Positions 3,507 through 41,732 of a DNA stretch of 64,000 nucleotides are shown here, piece by piece (within the stretch, counting starts at the first letter, position 1; each line of letters begins with the position of its first letter). Position numbers and translations under genes: made by a program. This stretch comes from Squalus acanthias (taxonomy: Eukaryota). Under the pieces are notes generated by a model that was given only the letters and a program-made list of their open reading frames with translations, was not told the origin of the DNA and did not search any database. The DNA is taken from NCBI GenBank assembly GCA_030390025.1, contig CM059431.1:117802001-117866000 (forward strand), read 5' to 3'.

Positions 3507-4396
3507 GGGGGAAAAATTCAATTGGTTGTGCCTCCCGTTACCGCCTTAAGAGGGCGCTAATGGGGTGCAAAGCAACTAGTGCCCGGGCGTGGCGATGTTT
3601 GCGCCGCTCGCGAAATTAACCAGACATTTTGCAGCGGTGCTAAACACTACTGCCACGATCTCCTGCGCCGGCAGATCGTGACGTCAGTCGAGTGTGCAAC
3701 GCCCTGGTAGCGCCCCGGAGCGGATATTGAGTGGCGCCCCCTGCCTTACCGCCTGCCGCTAGCAACGACAGGTTGAGGGGAGCATTTTGCAGTCAGGAAG
3801 GGACTGGGGGAGCGCTATTTAAAGGCGACTGCTTCCTGCCTTTTTTTGTTGGTGACATTTTTGAACCACGCCTGCTGAGAGAGAGAGAGAGACTTCTGGA
3901 GAGATTCAACGCTGTGTGAAGGAGTTTTGGTACTGAGCAGCACTTTGCAGGTTCATTTTGATCTGCCCTTCCTTGTATCGATTTAGAAGAGAGTGTGGGG
4001 GTTGCACTCTGAGCTCTTTCCCTAGGGCTCTCCATTGTTCTTTCCAGCAGATTTGATGTACAGGTCTCTCCAGGCTGAGATTCAAGGCTGCAATGAGCAG
4101 GATGTGGATGGAAAGCAAGATCAACCCTCCCCTTTAAGAACTGGCCGGCGCCATTGTGTCTGTGTTCCATTGCTGACTGACATCACATGAGCTTTGCCAG
4201 CGCTCTGAGTTAGCGCCTCGCTCCTCGGCCTTTGCGCCTTAAGACAGATGTGTAGCGCCTGATTTAGCGCTCCAATCACCTCCAGGGGCGATAACAGTCA
4301 ATTTTGCAGTCAGAGGCGATAATTAGCGCCAGGTGCTAATCTTTGCACCCGGCCGATAATTGCGCCCTAAATGGGGCGATACTGAATTTCTCCCCC
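3507..4396. mobile_element. PIF/Harbinger MITE (~890 bp), copy 1
   Basis: TIRs GGGGGAAAAATTCA / TGAATTTCTCCCCC; TAA TSD on both sides. Confidence 0.9.
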
Positions 4397-4796: not shown

Positions 4797-5520
4797 ATGA
4801 TTAAAGGTAGCATAAAATTACAAAGAGTTATTAATAGATTAAATGAATGGGCAAAACTGTGGCAAATGGATTTCAATGTAGGCAAATGTGAGGTCATCCA
4901 CTTTGGACCTAAAAAGGATAGAACAGGGTACTTTCTAAATGGTGAAAAGCTAGAAACAGTGGAGGTCCAAAGAGACTTGGGGGTCCATTTACATAGATCA
5001 TTAAAATGTCATGGACAAGTACAGAAAATAATCAAAAAGGCTAATGGAATGCTGGCCTTTATATCTAGAGGACTAACATACCAGGGGGTAGAAGTTATGC
5101 TGCAGCTATACAAAGCCCTGCTTAGACCACACCTGGAGTACTGTGAGCAGTTCTGGGCAGCACAACTTAGGAAGGATATATTGGCCTTGGAGGGAGTTCA
5201 GTGTAGATTTACCAGAATGATACCTGGACTCCAAGGGATAAATTACGAGGAAAGTTTACACAAATTAGGGTTGTATTCCCAATAATTTAGAAGGTTAGGG
5301 GGTGATATTAAAGGGAACTGATAGGGTAGATAGAGAGAAACTATTTCTGCTGGTTGGAGAGTCTAGGACTAGGGGGCATAGTCTAAAAATTAGAGCCAGG
5401 CCTTTCAGGAGTGAAGTTAGGAAACACTTCTACGTGCAAAGGGTGGAAGAAGTTAGGAATTTGCTTCCGTTTTTATTAACCAAAGGCAGTAATGGATATG
5501 GGGCAAAGGCGGGTATATAG
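4797..5520 (+). mobile_element. CR1 LINE 3' fragment
   Basis: WQMDFNVGKCEVIHFG...RPHLEYCEQFW, CR1 ORF2 C-terminus. Confidence 0.9.
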
Positions 5521-7039: not shown

Positions 7040-7932
7040 GGGGGAAAAATTCAGTTGGTTGCGCCTCCCGTTAGCGCCTTAAGAGGGCTCTAATGGGGCG
7101 CAAAGCATCTAGCCCCCAGGCGCGGCGATGTTTGCGCCGCTCGCGAAATTAACTAGACATTTTGCGGCGGCGCAAAACAATACCGCCACGATCTCCTGCG
7201 CCGGCAGATCGTGACGTCAGTCGTGTGCGCAACGCCCCGGTATCGCCCCAGAGCGGATATTGAGTGGCGCCCCCTGCCTTACCGCCTGACGCTAGCAACG
7301 ACAGGTTGAGGGGAGCGTTTTGCAGTCATGAAGGGACTGGGGGAGCGCTATTTAAAGGCGACCACTTCCTGCCTTTTATTGTTGGTGCCATTTTTGAACC
7401 ACACATTCTGAGAGAGAGAGAGAGAGACTTCTGGAGAGATTCAACGCTGTGTGAAGGAGCTTTTGGTACTGAGCAGCACTTTGCAGGTTCATTTTGATTT
7501 GCCATTCCTTGTATCGATTTAGAAGAGATTGTGGGGGCTGCACTCTGAGCTCTTTGCCTGGTACTCTCCATTGTTCTTTCCAGCAGATTTGATGTGCAGG
7601 TCTCTCCAGGCCGAGATTCCAAGCTGCAATGAGCAGGATGTGGATGGAAAGCAAGATCAACCATCCCCTTTAAGAAGTGGTCCGTGCCATTGTGTGTGTG
7701 TTCCATTGCTGACTGACATCACATGAGCTTCGCCAGCACTCTGAGGTAGCGCCTCGCTCCTCGGCCTTTGCGCCTTAAGACAGGTGTGAAGCACCTGATT
7801 TAGCGCTCCAATCACCTCCAGGGGCGATAAAAGTCAAGTTTGCAGTCGGTGGCGATAATTAGTGCCAGGCGCTAATCTTTGCGCCCGGCCGATAATTGCG
7901 CCCCAAATGGAGCGATACTGAATTTCTCCCCC
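7040..7932. mobile_element. PIF/Harbinger MITE, copy 2
   Basis: Colinear with 3507-4396; same TIRs; AAG TSD. Confidence 0.9.
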
Positions 7933-16275: not shown

Positions 16276-18569
16276 GTCAGGGTTCATCATAAACAGCTCT
16301 TCCAGCTGAGGTCAGGTGACTTAGTACAGCCTTGCCATTCTCTATGGTTCACTTTCACACCAAGGCAATGCATTGACTCATTAAGCCATGGGGGAAGTTT
16401 CCTTCTCAGCATTTTCCCCACTCAATCCTCTTGACACGGTAAAAACATGTCCAGCTCTTGGGTCTCTTTCATTAGGGCTCTTGCTGCCAAAAGTATTGGA
16501 AACTTTCATCTGCTGGATAAAGTAGCTTACGGTACATGTGATAGAATTGTAATTCGATATTAACAATTCTCTGCCTAAACTGAATAACTATGCTCGTATA
16601 GAACAGGTTAAACACATGATCTCATTCCAGTTAGAATAGGGGAGAAGATTCAGCAAGGTCACAGTTATCAAAAAATGGAAAATGAACTTCATAAATGGAG
16701 AAAGATGATCTGATTAAATAATATTGAATTATTTCAGGAATAAATCAAAGTAATTAAGTTGGACAAACCAGGATAATTTGAACAAAATGTAAATTGGCAG
16801 AAAAGAACTTTGAGTGACCTAAGATTTAATTGGTGGGACTTAAATCGATTAAAATAAAAATAAATGAATGAGTTAATGTTTGCTTCCCTTTAACTACAGT
16901 ACACCATAGTAAAAGCTTGCTGATCATATCCGAGAACTGTGTACCTTACGAATGCCTCAGTATCAGTTCCTGCATTTGTAAATTGCACCTTGTATGCTCA
17001 CCAGAGCACAGCAGCTGACATCTGGGGGGGTGGGGGGAGTGATGTTAACACCCAGGAATGGGTGGGTTGGAGTCGGGTGAGTAGTAAAAATACAAGAAAA
17101 TTGAAGCACAACCGCAACCTGGCTGCAACGCGCCCACTTCTGGGTTTAATTGAGGCGCGTTTGGCTGCGTGCGAGTAACCTGCTCGATAACCTGGCGCGA
17201 TAATTAGCACAGGCGGCTCGGCAATTAACACAGTATATAACACGATAGTTACAAGGAAATGAGGGGATTTTCAATTCATTTTAACATTCTTCTGAATTAA
17301 ACACCTCCAGCATGGGTTTCCCGGGGCACGGGAAACTCGCCAGTGAAAAGGAGGCGAGTTTCAGGTGCACTTCATGAGGCTCTTTAAAGTTCAGATTGCC
17401 CGATCTCAATGAAGGCTCAATGCTTACAGCTGCTTTTCCAGTTCCCTCTGACAAACGTTTCACAGAGAGCTATTGTCAGCATGGAGGTTTTTGAGAAGAT
17501 TGGCGCCTTTCAAAGGGACACCAGCAGGATGGGAAGCACCATGGATGTTTTTGACACTACATCAGACGAGGAAGACAAGCACCATGCACGGCAGCGACGA
17601 CGTGCTGTGGTGGGATCACCAAGTGCACAGGAGAGAGGTGCACAGGAGAGAGGAGACCAACAGAGGGGCCGAGGTACTACTCATATCATAGGGTTTACAG
17701 ACAGAGGCTTAGCTTCCTTGGCCTCTCGGAAGAACAGTGCTTGAGATTGAGACTGAGATTGTCACATCAGAAGCCTTCTAGAAGAAGACCTGCTACCTGC
17801 TGGACCTGGTGGTGTCGCATTACCAATGGCTGTGAAAGATACCATTGGCCTCAATTTTTCTGCCTCTGGTTCCTTTTCAGTGCATTGCCAGAGACATATC
17901 GAGTGTCTCGCAGTCTGCTGCACATGAATGCATAAGGCAGGTGACAGATGGATTGTTTGCCAGGGCTGGGAGTAATATAAACTTCTCCTGTGATGACAAT
18001 ATCCAGAATGAGTGCGTACTCGGATTTGCCTCTCTGGCTGGCCTCCAATAGGCACAGGATGCCATTGATTGCACACATGTGGCAATCCAAGCACCACCAC
18101 AGCAACCAGGAGTGTTTATCAACCGCAAGGGATATTATTCCATCAATACACAGCTGGTGTGCAAACACAAGAAGAGGTTCATGCAGGCCACATTCCCTGA
18201 GAGCTGTCATGATGCTTTCATACTGCGGCAGTCAACATTCCAGACCTTTTCGTTCTAGGAACCAGACTTATTGGCTGTTTCATAGGAGGCAATGGATACC
18301 ACCTTCAACCTTGGCTTATGATACCTTTGAGGAACCCCACCAATGAGGCGCAGGAGCGCTACAATGAGAGCCACCTGACCACCAGGTGTGTCATCGAGCA
18401 AGCATTTGGAATGTTGAAGATGCGCTTCAGGTGCCTAGCTAGGTCTGGAGGCACCATTCAGTACTTGCCAGCGAGGGTGTCCAGAATCATAGTGGTGTGC
18501 TGCATCCTGCACAACATTGTGCAGCAGAGAGGATTGCTGGTGGAGGAGGACGAAGGCTCTTATCAGGAA

Positions 18570-19156
18570 TGTAAGACGTGTAAATTTTTACACCAGTCTA
18601 ACAGTACTTAGAGTTCGGACCCGTATTGGAACAGACAACTTGAGACAAAGATTTCAGGGTGACTATCCTTTACTTAAAATCAACAGCGATTACAAGCAAG
18701 AACAAACATGCATACGTATTAACACCAGCGAGTGATTAGTTTGGCGGTGACCAGTAGGTTCTCTTCTCTGTGCGGCCAATCAAGTCACCCGACTCTCTGC
18801 AGCAGCCCCGAGTGTCTTTCGACTGCACTTTTTATACCCCAGAACTTAGCAGGCCGCCCAATGCGTACGTGTCCCAGACCACGTTAACAATGGCCAGTAG
18901 TTGTTTTTCTTTCTCCTCTCCTTATCTGTTCGTCGGTGGGCCTCAAGGCCGGTTACGCCGTTGTCTGCAGAAGTTCCTGTTAACAATGGCTTGAAGGTTT
19001 GTTTTACAGAACTTTCAAGGCCCACTTCCTTATGTGTGATTTTTACTGAACTTGCCCAGTAACACGGCCCTCCGTCTCTCAATGTATGCCGGTCCATTAA
19101 ATTTGGTCAACTTCGAGTTTAGTCAAGTTAATTTACAGCGATGATGTATTCTTACA
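18570..19156 (-). repeat. 3' LTR of element 1 (587 bp)
   Basis: Matches 22864-22875 plus 24444-25021; preceded on minus by GAGGGTGGAC (weak PPT). Confidence 0.9.
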
Positions 19157-19204
19157 AAGTCCACCCTCAAGTGGCTGTGTACCCGAATGTTGGGTCACAG
19201 GCAC

Positions 19205-20625
19205 TTACACCTCGCCATTGTCTTTTTCTTTCCATGTCTTCTGTAACAGCTTGACCAACTTTCACTGTTTGCGTCACCTGTTGACGTGGCAAGTTATTAT
19301 CAGTAAGTATAACACAATCAGCAGCTGAACAATGACCAAGTCATGGGAGATAATCCTTATCCATGGATGATCCTCAATATTCCTATCGATATCTCACCAG
19401 GACGAATCATCCCCAACCCTGGATATTTCCTTTTGTCATTCATGGATTTTCTTGGGCCAAGGTATAATAATGCTTCTGGGACTGATTGACGTGCCTCATT
19501 AACTCTACCAAGTTTTCTTGCCGTGGTGGGATGTCATAGCCGAACCGAGTCACATATTGGTGCAATTGCTCTTTTAACTCATCCTTTACAGTAATATTTA
19601 CTTGCTTATGTGAATAAATGCTTAACAACACCCACGCCCCAAGTCTCACAGGTCTGACTGGGGTAAAACAAAAGATTCCCTGCACAATAGGACAAGTCAA
19701 GTCATTACTGTACTGGTATTCCCAGTGCATAGTAGTCACACAATATTCCCCCTTCCCTAGATATGCAGATCGTACGGGGAGGTGCCACCCTGGAGTCACT
19801 TTCATGGTACAACTCCACACCACCCTATCCCGATTGAACCCACAAGTGGGGGCTGCATGTTCTGCCACATCGTAGGGGCAGATCAACGTATCCCGAGCTT
19901 GAGCGCATCCGGTAAGACCTGGGGCCACCCATGTGGTCCCATCCACTCGGGTCACGTATTGTGGGGGTTCATCATACTTTACTAAGTGGTCTCCCCGACG
20001 CACCCCTATGTTCTCTACATGGAATAGAGGACTTGGAGCTGCGTTATCAGACAGAACGGGATAATATAATACCATCCCTAACAGGGTGATGTTCCTTTCC
20101 TCTGCCAATCATACTCGTGTTTCACCGGGTACACCTGTACCAGTCCTCTGACTTGGCACACAGTCATGGTAAGTTGGCAAGTGGACATCGCCATCAGATG
20201 TTGATCAGTCACCCACAAGGGGAGTTTCCACTCAGCAATGCGCTGTAGGTTTTCTCGGGTGTGTTCCACCAACCAAGACCCATACATTATACATACATCG
20301 TTTCGCGCGGCCTTACTAGAGGTATTCTGGTCCTCCTTTAAAACCTGATTTATCATCTCAGCATGAGATTTTCGATATTTTACCACATCCTGCAGGTGTA
20401 TGGTTATTATTTAATCCGCCTCCAATTCCTTCTGCTCCTGATCATTCATTTCATACAAAATTTTCCTTAAACTGTTTCTAACCGTCTTTACAGATTGGTC
20501 TAGGCTGGCCAAATCAAGGCTATTAATGAGGGAGGTTTCGATGTTAGTTACCTTTAACATAACAGTCTCCCCCAAAAAACTTCTTTGATAACACAGTTTA
20601 GACAGAATCACGTAGACTGGACCTT
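19205..20625 (-). pseudogene. env-like class I fusion glycoprotein relic
   Basis: Frameshifted ORFs 20411-20611, 20078-20386, 19440-20108: heptad region, Cys-rich ectodomain, then HPWIRIISHDLVIVQLLIVLYLLII TM segment and basic tail. Confidence 0.7.
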
Positions 20626-21922
20626 GACAAAAAAAAAAATTTGATTATCCCCATAAATTTCAGATAAATTTCCCTTCCCGAGGGCTTGAGCAGCAACTCA
20701 TATCAATTTACCTAAACAATTTTAATTTCTCAAACAAATTATGTCCAGGCTTGTGATTTAACAAAAGAAAACAAAAGTATTTGCAATTGCGTTTGGATGT
20801 AAGTCTTTTATCTTCCCTCTCGAGCAATCTGTCTTGGAAGATAACACATGACTCCAAATAGTTACTTCCAAGTATTAAAAAGCAATTTTGTCACCATGCT
20901 GGGACATTCGAGATCCATCAATGTCTGCAGATAAGAACTTAAATTCTGCACATTACTAGAGCTCCCACTGCACCTTTCCAGCAAAGTTCAAACTTTGTAA
21001 CACCTTGAAGTCATTTCTATATCAAAGAACCACTCTTGGTAATCTTACACCATCAACATTCATCTGGCTCCCTGCTTAAAAGAAAAAAACAGACAATCCA
21101 TTGCGACTTGCCTACGAGCCCAATGGGTTAATTTGTCAATTCCTGATTCCCTTCTGCCACTGTGTGGAAACATCCACTCTAATTAAAAAACATAAAAATT
21201 TAACAATGCCCAAAATGTTTACAAAACACACAGCTGCATGTGGGGTTAAAAACAGAGTTCACAGCTGCTTGTGAAAAGAGTTAACTTTTTTTTGCATTTT
21301 AAAAGACAAACACAAACATCATCAATCAATGTCAGCTTGTGTCACACAGCTTCTCACAGCTTTCTAATAAATTTTTTTAAACTTTTGCAAAATATAAAAA
21401 ACTGTTACTTTTGCATGTCTTTGTGCCTTTAAAATTTGCAAAGATCCTGATCAATTCAATTCAGCAGGTTAAAACATCAGACATCATTAGTAACACCACT
21501 ACAAACATTCTGTAAAACAAGTCCACATACAACAATAGCATTCTCCTTTTTTTCCCTGGTCACACATACTTGAAATTGGTCAGAATTTTTTTTTTAAATG
21601 CCAATTGTTGATGTGATTGCCTCATGTCTAAAACTAGAGGCTTTCACACAATTTACACCAACCAGTATTTCACCATGGCCATAATAAAAGTCTGGTTTTA
21701 ATAGGTTAATTAACCTCAATAACTCCAATTTAATTCAGAGCAATATCTTAAACTAACTAGTACCACTTGAAAAAGAGGGAGGAGCCACAGCCACAGTAAC
21801 AAAGTAACATTCACACATGCTTTGTAAAAAGACATTAACATTCACACTGAAAACAAAAACATGTAGAACAGCAGAAAAGAGACATGATCTTCCCTTTTCT
21901 CCTTTATTCCATCATAACTATT

Positions 21923-22824
21923 TTATCCTTTTTCCTTGAAACCAATTTTCAATTTCTGATGTTTTCTATTGAATCCCATTCTAAACAGATTCAAAACCTT
22001 AAACTCACAGTCCATATTATATGGGACCTCAATTTCCCAATCTAATGCACCCCAATCCCCGCTCCCTTCACCAGGCGCCAAGTACCGCCTTTGGCGCATC
22101 AGGTTCATGGGCGGAGGCCGAGCTCCCTCCAGTGGGGCATTCCCTGGTCCCTTATCCAATTTTTCATCACCCCCTTCATCAACTTCACTATCACTTTCTT
22201 CACTATCCTGTCCATCCTTCCCAAATGAGGGGGTCATGGCACATACAATGCCTCTTTGAATCTGCAACTTCTCCAATTCCCTAATCCGCTTATTACATTC
22301 AATGTGATCCTCACGGGTGCTCCGTTCCACTAGATCCTGTTTCTGGGTGACCCTAAACTCAACCTTCAGGTCCTCATTAACCTTTTCTGCCTGCTCTGCC
22401 CGATGACTCTGGTTGGACGCCTTCTCCGACCAGACATCACACTGATTCTGGTTATTCATACACTGGCTCTCAAGGTACAGTTCCTTATTACACCATCTCT
22501 CCTTTGCCTTTTCAAACTGCTCTGCGAGCCTTTTCCTACTTTCCCTTTCTTCTTCTAAATCCCTCAGAAGTCGGTTTACCGCCTTATTCGCCAGATCTTC
22601 TATCTCCTTTTGCATCTTAATTTTCATACATTTATCGTTTTTAAACTATCTCTGGAATGCCATTAACCAGATGGCCTTCATCGTCCCTGGCCAACACGTG
22701 GACACTTGTGTCCATTGTTCGGCCTCAGGTCATCCCCGTCTATTATGACCCGTACCCATCCCTCCTTGAGGGGTAACTTCCTTGTCACATATTTCGTGAC
22801 TAACTCATCCATCATCTTTGCCAT
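21923..22824 (-). pseudogene. gag-like N-terminal coiled-coil ORF (frameshifted, truncated)
   Basis: ATG 17 nt after the PBS; charged coiled-coil ORF 21923-22627 then acidic and Pro-rich linker. Confidence 0.6.
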
Positions 22825-22840
22825 TGTTTGTTCCGAGTGG

Positions 22841-22858
22841 GTCCCTGTTCAGGCACCA
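22841..22858 (-). promoter_or_regulatory. Primer binding site, tRNA-Lys(UUU)
   Basis: TGGTGCCTGAACAGGGAC versus canonical TGGCGCCCGAACAGGGAC (two C>T changes), 5 nt from the LTR. Confidence 0.85.
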
Positions 22859-22876
22859 AAATCTGTAAGACATATG

Positions 22877-24443
22877 GGGGGAGAAATTGGGTATCGCCCC
22901 GTTTGGGGCGCAATTATCGGCCGGGCGCAAAGTTTAACGCCTGGCGCTAATTATCGCCTCTGACTGCAAACTTGGCTTCTATCGCCCTGTAAGCATTTTA
23001 TTTCGACTGGCATTAAATTGACAGCAAGACCAATTCTTTTGAAACAATTTGGAATAAGTTTATTAAACACACACACTCATGCACATCAAAACAATAGCCT
23101 ACTGGTATTTATGGACTCTACTCGATTACAACTCATAAGGTAATGGATTAGATTTACACAGACTGGTACTTCCCTGAGTTAAGCAATGCACGCAGCCTTT
23201 TTCCTTGCTTCTTGGTCTGGTCTGTAGAGGGAGGGCTTCTTGTTCTTCCATGTGGTCGTCCAAAGAGAGAGAGAGAGAGAGAGAGCCTTTGGTTCCTTGT
23301 TTTTATATTTTTTAAAGTCCATTGTCTTCTAGTTTAAATTCTTAAGATGCCACGATTGGGTCTTAGATTCTGGCAGTTCTTGATTGGCTTTCCTTTGAAC
23401 ATGTGTCTGTCTGTAGTGGCTGGTGACATTTCTTGCTTAAGTTAATTGTTTGTTGACACCTTTTCGTGGCTCTTGAGTTTCGATGGTGAGTTTCGATGGT
23501 GTCTCTGTGGGGGGTTATCCTGTTATTTAGGTTTCCTTTGTTAAGTTTTGCCCCGCTGCCTTACCCAGGGGAAACCCATACACATCAAATGTATCTTTAT
23601 CTTATATTAATAATCTCAAGTCCATCACACATACAAAACATATATTTTTATTCTTACAGCCCCTAGAGGTGATTGGTACGCTAAATTAGGCGCTTACACA
23701 CCTCTCTTAAGGTGCTAACGCCGAGGAGCGAGACGCTACCTCAGAGCGCTGGCGAAACTCATGTGATGTCAGTCAGCAATGGAACACAGACACACTGGCA
23801 CCGGCCAGTTCTTAAAGGGGAGGGTCGATCTTGCTCTCCATCCACACCCTGCGCATTGCAGCCTTGAATCTCGGCCTGGAGCGACCTGTACATCAAGTCT
23901 GCTGGAAAGAACAATGGAGCGGGCCAGGGAAAAGCACAGAGTGCAGCCCCCATAGTCTCTTCTAAATCAATGCAAGGAAGGTCAAATCAAAATGAACCTG
24001 CAAAGTGCTGCTCAGTACCCAAAACTCCTTCACACAGCATTGAATATCTCCAGAAGTCTCTCTCTCTCTCTCAGAATGCGTGGTGCAAAAATGTCACCAA
24101 CAAAAAAAGGCAGGAAGCATCCGCCTATAAATAGCGCTCCCCCAGTCCCTTCCCGACTGCAAAATGCTCCCCTCAACCTGTCATTGCTAACGGCAGGCGG
24201 TAAGGCAGGGGGCACCACTCAATATCCGGTCCGGGGCGATACCAGGGCGTTGCACGCTCGACTGACGTCACGATCTGCGGGCACAGGAAATCGTGGCAGT
24301 AGTGTTTAGCGCTGCCGCAAAATGTCTGGTCAATTTTGCGAGCGGCGCAAACATTGCTGCGCCCGGGCGCTAGTTGCTTTGCACCCCATTAGCGCCCTCT
24401 TAGGGTGCTAACGGGAGGCGCAAAGCAACCGAATTTTTCCCCC
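22877..24443. mobile_element. PIF/Harbinger MITE, copy 3 (inverted), carrying a solo LTR
   Basis: Reverse complement of 3507-4396; GGGGGAGAAATT / AATTTTTCCCCC ends. Confidence 0.9.
22988..23658 (-). mobile_element. Solo LTR (671 bp)
   Basis: TGTAAG..CTTACA termini; perfect GCCC 4-bp TSD; TATA-like and AATAAA on minus. Confidence 0.85.
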
Positions 24444-25239
24444 GTAAATTTTTACACCAGTCTAACAGTACTTAGAGTTCGGACCCGTATTGGAACAGAC
24501 AACTCGAGACAAAGATTTCAGGGTAACTATTCTTTACTTAAAATCAACAACGATTACAAGCAAGAAACAAACATACATACGTACTAACACCAGCGAGTGA
24601 TCAGTTTGGCGGTGACGAGTAGGTTCTCTTCTCTGTGCGACCAATCAAGTTGCCTGACTCACTGCGGCAGCCCCTAGTGTCTTTCACCTGCACTTTTTAT
24701 ACCCCAAAACTTAGCAGACCTCCCAATGAGTACATGTCCCAGACCACGTTAACAATGGCCAGTAGTTGTTTTTCTTTCTCCTCTCCTTATGTGTTAGTCG
24801 GTGGGCCTCAAGGCTGGTTAGGCCATTGTCTGAAGTAGTTCCTGTTAACAATGGCTTGAAGGTTTGTTTTACAGAACTCTGAAGGCCCACTTCCTTATCT
24901 GTGATTTTTACGTAATATGCCCAGTAACACGGCCCTCCATCTCTCAAGGTATGCCGGTCCATTAAATTTAGTTAACTTTGAGTTTAGTCACGTTACTTTA
25001 CAGCGATGATGTATTCTTACAGGCATCTTTGGATGAGGAGAACATTGAAGTGGAGGAGGAGGACTATGAAAATGGGGCACGCATCGCCAGACTAGCAGCG
25101 TACATTGCTACCAGTGATGCCAGGGATGCCCACACAGCTAGAAGATTCAGTTAATTATTCCAACTGGAACAAATAACAAATGAAAGTCAACACCAGCACC
25201 AATCCCCTGACCCTCCCTTTGCACTATTCAGTCCTTCAA

Positions 25240-41498: not shown

Positions 41499-41732
41499 GG
41501 GGGAGAAATTCGGTATCGCACCGTTTGGGGTGCAATTATCATCCGGGCGCAAAGTTTAGCGCCTGGCGCTAATTATCCCCTCCGACTGCAAACTTGGCTT
41601 CTATCGTCTGGAGGTGATTGGAGCTCTAAATCAGGTGCTACACACCTCTCTTAAGGTGCTAACGCTGAGGAGCGAGGCGCTACCTCAGAGCGCTGGCTAA
41701 TGGGAGGTACAAAGCAGCCAAATTTTTCCCCC
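41499..41732. mobile_element. 234-bp deletion derivative of the Harbinger MITE
   Basis: Both TIRs present; AAA TSD. Confidence 0.85.

Follow-up and report, generated by a model that had tools for sequence, protein, structure and literature searches.

The element between positions 18570 and 25021 of the window, a 64,000-nucleotide stretch of Squalus acanthias DNA (contig CM059431.1, positions 117,802,001 to 117,866,000), is one dead member of a hybrid provirus family with many copies, likely a shark endogenous retrovirus (ERV). It lies on the minus strand and reads from 25021 to 18570. We consider it probable that a true retrovirus family supplied its long terminal repeats (LTRs), lysine primer site, env and the start of gag, that an unrelated LTR element supplied its middle, and that the hybrid was mobilised in trans. 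A first-pass annotation had described the same DNA as a non-autonomous element, loki-like or Gypsy-like, that kept env and lost pol. The element is non-autonomous, and the loss of pol is a family trait: this is a non-autonomous ERV family that has autonomous partners with matching LTR and primer-binding site (PBS). Neither of the two labels is supported for the family, and more than pol is gone. The window copy itself has no likely function. The parts of the provirus, with the duplicated target site on either side, are as follows.

18566 to 18569: target-site duplication, left copy, GGAA
18570 to 19156, minus strand: 3' LTR, 587 bp
19157 to 19172, minus strand: purine-rich tract adjoining the 3' LTR, likely the polypurine tract to judge by its sequence
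19289 to 20540, minus strand: env remnant, with the end of the fusion peptide, heptad repeat, Cys-rich beta region, second heptad and transmembrane segment
20540 to 22013, minus strand: captured AT-rich segment, the interior of a separate LTR element, replacing capsid, nucleocapsid and Pol
21072 to 21089, minus strand: putative splice acceptor within the captured segment (pyrimidine tract and AG)
22014 to 22824, minus strand: 5' third of gag, charged, likely coiled-coil, broken, continuing in frame for about 30 codons into the captured segment
22841 to 22858, minus strand: PBS, tRNA-Lys(TTT) type
22864 to 22875, minus strand: final 12 bases of the 5' LTR, severed by a nested insertion
24444 to 25021, minus strand: main part of the 5' LTR
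25022 to 25025: target-site duplication, right copy, GGCA

The LTR pair has TG..CA termini and differs at 43 of 577 aligned bases (7.5%, or 0.079 by the Kimura two-parameter model; 7.3% over the first 300 bases), in line with the roughly 8% first estimated. The earlier reading overlooked a 1.57-kb nested insertion that interrupts the 5' LTR, and the true interior of the provirus is 3.7 kb once this is discounted. The target-site duplication is 4 bp long with one base altered, and perfect 4-bp duplications flank four further copies, L011, L021, L058 and L090 (L-numbers, apart from L107 and L110 below, name the 96 ten-kilobase stretches of the genome that we fetched). The LTRs would be about 18 million years old with the mammalian rate of PMC7947760 and about 180 million years old with the tenfold slower shark rate assumed in PMC4422223. 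The PBS is of the lysine type, as had been claimed; it differs at 2 of 18 positions from that of the sister copy L011, and the core of the L011 site agrees with tRNA-Lys(TTT) genes of the genome at two of the four loci checked. As a separate observation, a tRNA-Lys-like motif occurs in tandem arrays with a period of about 1.78 kb on contigs C29, C2208, C1484 and C282 (281 exact matches).

The family evidence comes from searches with the parts of the window copy. The env piece gave 150 scored matches (8,842 candidates), and we picked 30 close loci by env, 20 of them the best non-self matches or near to it and 10 chosen by hand. The AT-rich segment stands ahead of env in 15 of these 30, and RT (reverse transcriptase), RNase H or a whole integrase (IN) core is found in nine. 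Ten of the 15 segment-bearing loci lie on stretches that extend to gag, and no protease (PR), RT or RNase H was found in any of them. The LTR search gave 40 scored matches besides the window itself, all at 89-92% (912 candidates). Some copies do have pol. Five such partners (L012, L026, L047, L088 and L090) are 87-92% identical to the window copy in the LTR, the start of gag and the 3' part of env. They encode a capsid motif that we take to be MHR-like, a CCHC knuckle, PR, RT, a tether, RNase H and IN, and an in-frame TGA precedes PR in four of the six partner copies printed. In env, the window-type hybrids fall together with the partners in a single clade (FastTree support 0.99), where hybrids differ from partners by 9.1% and the members of each group from one another by 8.6-9.0%; the pol-bearing partners are of the same age as the hybrids.

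The loss is also shared at the level of single junctions. Of 40 loci scored, 8 run across the left (gag) junction of the window copy, so the deletion is not unique to this copy, and one further junction class is spanned by all 40 loci scored. On the right side, among 44 hybrids, classes of 10, 14 and 7 loci rejoin the provirus in IN, classes of 2, 1 and 3 rejoin it towards env, and 7 are singletons. Three hybrids (L056, L085 and L086) are arranged the other way: IN is kept upstream, one of them has all of pol, and the segment replaces the 5' part of env. Most junctions show overlaps of 5-10 bases. One right junction is common to two subfamilies that are 20-21% apart in gag and in the 3' part of env and 11% apart in the segment, against a within-group divergence of 9-10%. 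Two loci with near-identical layouts, L069 and L074, lie 0.7 Mb apart on contig C19 in opposite orientation and are likely a segmental duplication.

We believe the simplest cause of such hybrids would be template switching by reverse transcriptase between two RNAs packaged together, one from each LTR element. The window type has neither capsid nor nucleocapsid nor any of the enzymes, so it would need them in trans, and it likely spread with Gag and Pol supplied by its intact relatives, in which gag-pol would be made by readthrough of the in-frame TGA. The claim that pol was lost is therefore right as far as it goes but understated, since capsid and nucleocapsid are gone too and foreign DNA is in their place. 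Window gag ends ahead of capsid, and the MHR-like motif and CCHC knuckle of the partners sit beyond this point. What is left is the charged 240-residue open reading frame first described as coiled-coil; the frame exists and has no significant Pfam match, and the coiled coil itself was judged by eye only.

The foreign DNA is 1.47 kb long with a GC content of 32-38%, which agrees well enough with the 1.3 kb or so of AT-rich sequence first noticed in the place of pol. It was found alone in all 25 donor loci examined, between other LTRs (TGTTAG..AACA) and with a different PBS, which we take to be of His type; no match to the LTR, gag or env DNA of the provirus was found in any of the 25. The donor is an LTR element of about 5 kb. 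It is abundant, with 541 candidates for its 5' interior; L079 (1612-2335), L092, L093 and L096 (element orientation) are donor copies, and the tandem units of L079 share one LTR. We found no firm coding relic in the donor. Weak env-like matches (E 5e-7 and 5e-5) lie downstream of the captured part and were lost at E 1e-5 with filtering, so we reject them. Sequence look-ups with the env piece and with the captured segment returned no matches.

The acceptor-like site in the segment is present in 27 of 31 hybrids and in 7 of the 9 stand-alone copies scored, and three junction classes end no more than about 35 bases past it, a pattern that was noticed post hoc. In one of the classes (L016, about 5050-5062) the junction of most copies, some 35 bases beyond the acceptor-like site, resembles a 5' splice site, and this likeness may be chance. 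Splicing was also tried as the origin of the L086 junction, which falls at the acceptor, and rejected since, by eye, there is an overlap but no GT on the side of the ERV. The bolder proposal is that the segment is a selected cis-acting cassette, taken repeatedly and passed between subfamilies, and together with this that the family belongs to a deep lineage in which a retroviral RT is combined with a Loki-like tether and IN and an F-type Env. We hold this combination to be possible but doubtful. If it were true, the cassette (for splicing, export or packaging) came from a non-coding LTR parasite and crossed between subfamilies 20% apart, and the deep lineage, with its frog and coelacanth kin, would place the origin of F-type Env in a common ancestor of retroviruses and Loki. 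The hybrids document, in nature, that two LTR families have recombined repeatedly, and they offer a candidate cis element.

Env was said to have been kept, which is true of the family and not of the window copy. The window env covers residues 166-586 of a natural 586-residue frame (65-76% by tblastn) whose furin site is at 154. It is without the signal peptide, the subunit before the cleavage site, the furin site and the start of the fusion peptide, and it carries 2 stops and 5 frameshifts by script count. The sisters L011 and L049 retain about 2 kb more, from the last part of the segment through the IN tail to the 5' half of env. The window env junction is found in 1 of 42 matches and once genome-wide by a pattern allowing 3 mismatches; the 5' half of env was lost privately by the window copy. 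The motifs and transmembrane segment first described are present in what remains, and a CX6CC or ISD-like motif (immunosuppressive domain) occurs in none of four long natural env frames, just as no gamma-type motif had been seen here at first. We tried to find selection on env after the loss of pol. The ratio dN/dS is 0.29 for ten pol-less copies of one junction class and 0.6-0.8 for the window subfamily, and no lesion is fixed in any group. This is not proof of selection because two types of env occur among the ten copies, one of which another class has too, and because a good env score was the ground for choosing them.

Env is predicted to have the F-type class I fusion fold of measles-type viruses. 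We folded the unaltered 586-residue frame of a relative, L017, which is 73% identical to the window piece, using a 46-row alignment. The model has a mean pLDDT of 68 and a predicted TM-score (pTM) of 0.51. Foldseek against PDB ranks F of human parainfluenza virus 3 first (E 9e-12) and gives 244 matches at E <=0.001, with TM-scores of 0.34-0.48. The VIA comparison gives Z 11.3 and an rmsd of 6.8 over 313 aligned residues, and all 50 entries listed are F of paramyxo- or pneumoviruses. BFVD matches are fusion proteins of lispiviruses, baculoviruses and paramyxoviruses, plus Env of walleye virus and feline foamy virus (the latter at rank 38). The first Atlas match is a PF00523 cluster (0.93), at a low recognition (1252). 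Foamy Env is not among the Foldseek or VIA PDB rows listed, an absence that excludes nothing. The suggestion that this env is F-protein-like rather than an ordinary retroviral transmembrane protein is thus borne out at the level of a model of a relative's frame.

Profiles extend the result to known retroviruses. Pfam searches of the window open reading frames and 40 locus frames assigned neither env nor gag of the close family to any known family, and a word-based homologue search with env gave one match. The env profile (A2) matches Env of snakehead retrovirus (SnRV) at 22.6 bits (E 6e-9), against a maximum of 1.5 bits in 200 shuffles, and Env of walleye virus at E 1e-9. L110 is walleye virus, identified by its RT, and P0113 and L107 are SnRV, identified from the published alignment (PMC7947760). 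The family furin site is RXRR/RQKR.

On the evidence of its sequences the family looks like a true retrovirus with an RT nearest to SnRV among labelled sequences. In quick trees without bootstrap the partner RTs fall among the retroviruses and are separated from Gypsy (SH-aLRT 100), and Pfam finds both RT_RNaseH and RNase_H in L012 and L026. A dual RNase H is common to all retroviruses. These results speak against the label Gypsy-like. The label loki-like is not supported for the family either, since identity to SnRV over 138 RT positions is 72 (computed with P0113) and to Loki-Bsp about 52 by eye, and over 216 residues SnRV is the highest among labelled RTs at 46%, with walleye virus at 35%. 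Moreover, all 13 whole Loki rows in the alignment of PMC7947760 have PFG where the partners and SnRV have LPQGF. Sharks are the source of the nearest named proteins overall, and the nearest named Pols are auto-named "NYNRIN-like". Those of frog and coelacanth that group with the partner RT are P0002, P0105-P0110 and P0112, and frog Env homologues of 675-723 residues were retrieved as well. We regard the lineage of these and the provirus as a candidate source of CGIN1/NYNRIN. A scan of viral contigs with the partner RT gave no match.

Several points weigh against the reading we prefer. By sequence, neither Pfam nor PDB yielded an F match, and in PDB env and its profile found nothing credible; the fold is that of a relative and not of the broken frame in the window; and its pTM of 0.51, its TM-scores of 0.34-0.48 and its low Atlas recognition count here too. 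The RT trees put SnRV in an open fork, contained no Loki sequence, none of the searches having returned a Loki protein, and group the partner RTs only with the frog and coelacanth Pols (SH-aLRT 89). In the tether, identity is 22% with SnRV and about 47/117 (about 40%) with Loki-Bsp by eye, and IN is about 38% identical to Loki-Bsp by eye and 33% to SnRV; the shared tether and IN may be ancestral states. The junction classes may be partly derived from one another, and loci were chosen by best score, which favours intact copies.

The strongest of the rival identities is that the family belongs to the lokiretroviruses, as their first member from cartilaginous fish, or has a Loki body in which RT was swapped, and that the window copy is a non-autonomous derivative. 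An F-like Env with an RXKR-type site, a dual RNase H, a coiled-coil head on Gag, as in Bik-1 (PMC12067270), and a tether and IN resembling those of Loki-Bsp by eye are all shared with lokiretroviruses (PMC7947760). The nearest named Pols are "NYNRIN-like", and Loki IN groups with CGIN1 in the same paper. However, the F-like Env does not mark Loki because Env of SnRV and walleye virus match the same profile. The RT signatures and identities given above favour SnRV, and the partner PR is short, whereas that of Loki-Bsp lies some 500 residues ahead of RT. The survey in PMC7947760 scored 0 of 3 orectolobiform genomes and, in its accessible part, names no cartilaginous host. We therefore think a Loki identity unlikely.

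An env-bearing Ty3/Gypsy element of the errantivirus kind, or a foamy-like virus, is in our judgement quite improbable. F-type Env does occur in Gypsy elements (PMC13524379), and foamy Env has been linked to F (PMC11468914). The best PDB match of the partner RT is foamy virus (149 bits, against 121 for murine leukaemia virus and 110 for Ty3), from a set that held no SnRV or Loki RT as competitor, and the best PDB match of tether, RNase H and IN is Ty3. Against this stand the dual RNase H and the place of the RT within the retrovirus clade. Foamy viruses are unlike the partners, which have a CCHC knuckle and an in-frame stop before PR. ERV4, with a 5-bp duplication and no Gag zinc finger (PMC4299795), is ruled out by the 4-bp duplications and the CCHC knuckle. 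Finally, the idea that the segment was inserted as plain DNA into proviruses already integrated, with deletion of flanking sequence, and no trans-mobilised lineage of hybrid RNA, can point to the nested insertions that fill this genome (two inside the window 5' LTR) and to the variation among junctions, but it is extremely unlikely, being largely refuted by identical junctions on many contigs at unrelated sites, by a segment that comes from the donor interior and has neither the donor LTRs nor target duplications, and by the paired LTRs and own 4-bp duplications of hybrids L011, L021 and L058.

A retrovirus family near SnRV, with hybrids derived from it, can be compared with several known systems. 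ERVs related to SnRV are reported from elephant shark (CmiERV lineage I, PMC4422223) and across vertebrates (PMC6001957). The shark family is like SnRV and the clade Huo ERVs (PMC12193657) in its RT motifs, its RT identity and its CCHC Gag. It is also like SnRV, which uses readthrough (PMC13517186), in having gag and pol joined by an in-frame stop, where readthrough is presumed to operate too, and its Env is homologous, including furin site, fusion peptide and heptad. It is unlike that clade in having a Lys PBS, TGA in place of UAG, a shorter Env, a far less degenerate tether and, in the window type, a non-autonomous hybrid. Lokiretroviruses have not been reported in cartilaginous fish in the accessible part of PMC7947760. 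The zebrafish BHIKHARI elements Bik-1 and Bik-2 (PMC12067270) are likewise LTR families that are non-autonomous, belong to a deep lineage of fish retroviruses and have a coiled-coil Gag head, but they have a whole Gag and no pol or env, whereas the shark hybrids have no capsid and carry env and foreign DNA. The SERV-K/MER11 recombinant (PMC11379458) is also an ERV clade defined by a captured segment of another LTR family. In that case the segment lies after env, pol is kept and the segment is a proven export element; in the shark it replaces everything from capsid to IN, and any role in cis is putative.

Wang and Han left undecided whether F-type Env is ancestral to retroviruses or an acquisition by Loki (PMC7947760). 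A shark family with a retroviral RT and a predicted F-type Env, whose profile also finds Env of SnRV and walleye virus, favours the ancestral alternative, and F-like Env loses value as a Loki marker. Our literature search, which was thin on subscription journals, found no statement of F-type Env for SnRV.

A second family was met at L031-L040, with 40-42% env identity and env frames of up to 715 residues. The copies scanned have gag-pol with CCHC, tether, RNase H and IN. The RT frame of L040 is Gypsy-type and so lies outside the provirus family. The surroundings of the provirus and its later insertions are these.

18213 to 18569, plus strand: host site, a decayed Harbinger-type transposase split by the provirus (Pfam DDE_Tnp_4, E 2e-16)
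22876 to 24443: nested insertion, later than the provirus and no part of it, a 0.9-kb element with terminal inverted repeats (TIRs) and a solo LTR inside
22988 to 23658: solo LTR of another family, ends TGTAAG..CTTACA, perfect GCCC duplication

The acidic tail of the transposase picks up again at about 25023, beyond the provirus. The solo LTR had no match among any of the fetched loci; its six terminal bases are identical to those of the provirus-family LTR, and it probably belongs to a related family. The 0.9-kb TIR element has G-rich ends and is abundant, with 42 matches in 29 sequences, the window counted: four lie in the window, at 22876-24443, 3507-4396, 7040-7932 and 41499-41700, and 28 fetched loci have matches too.

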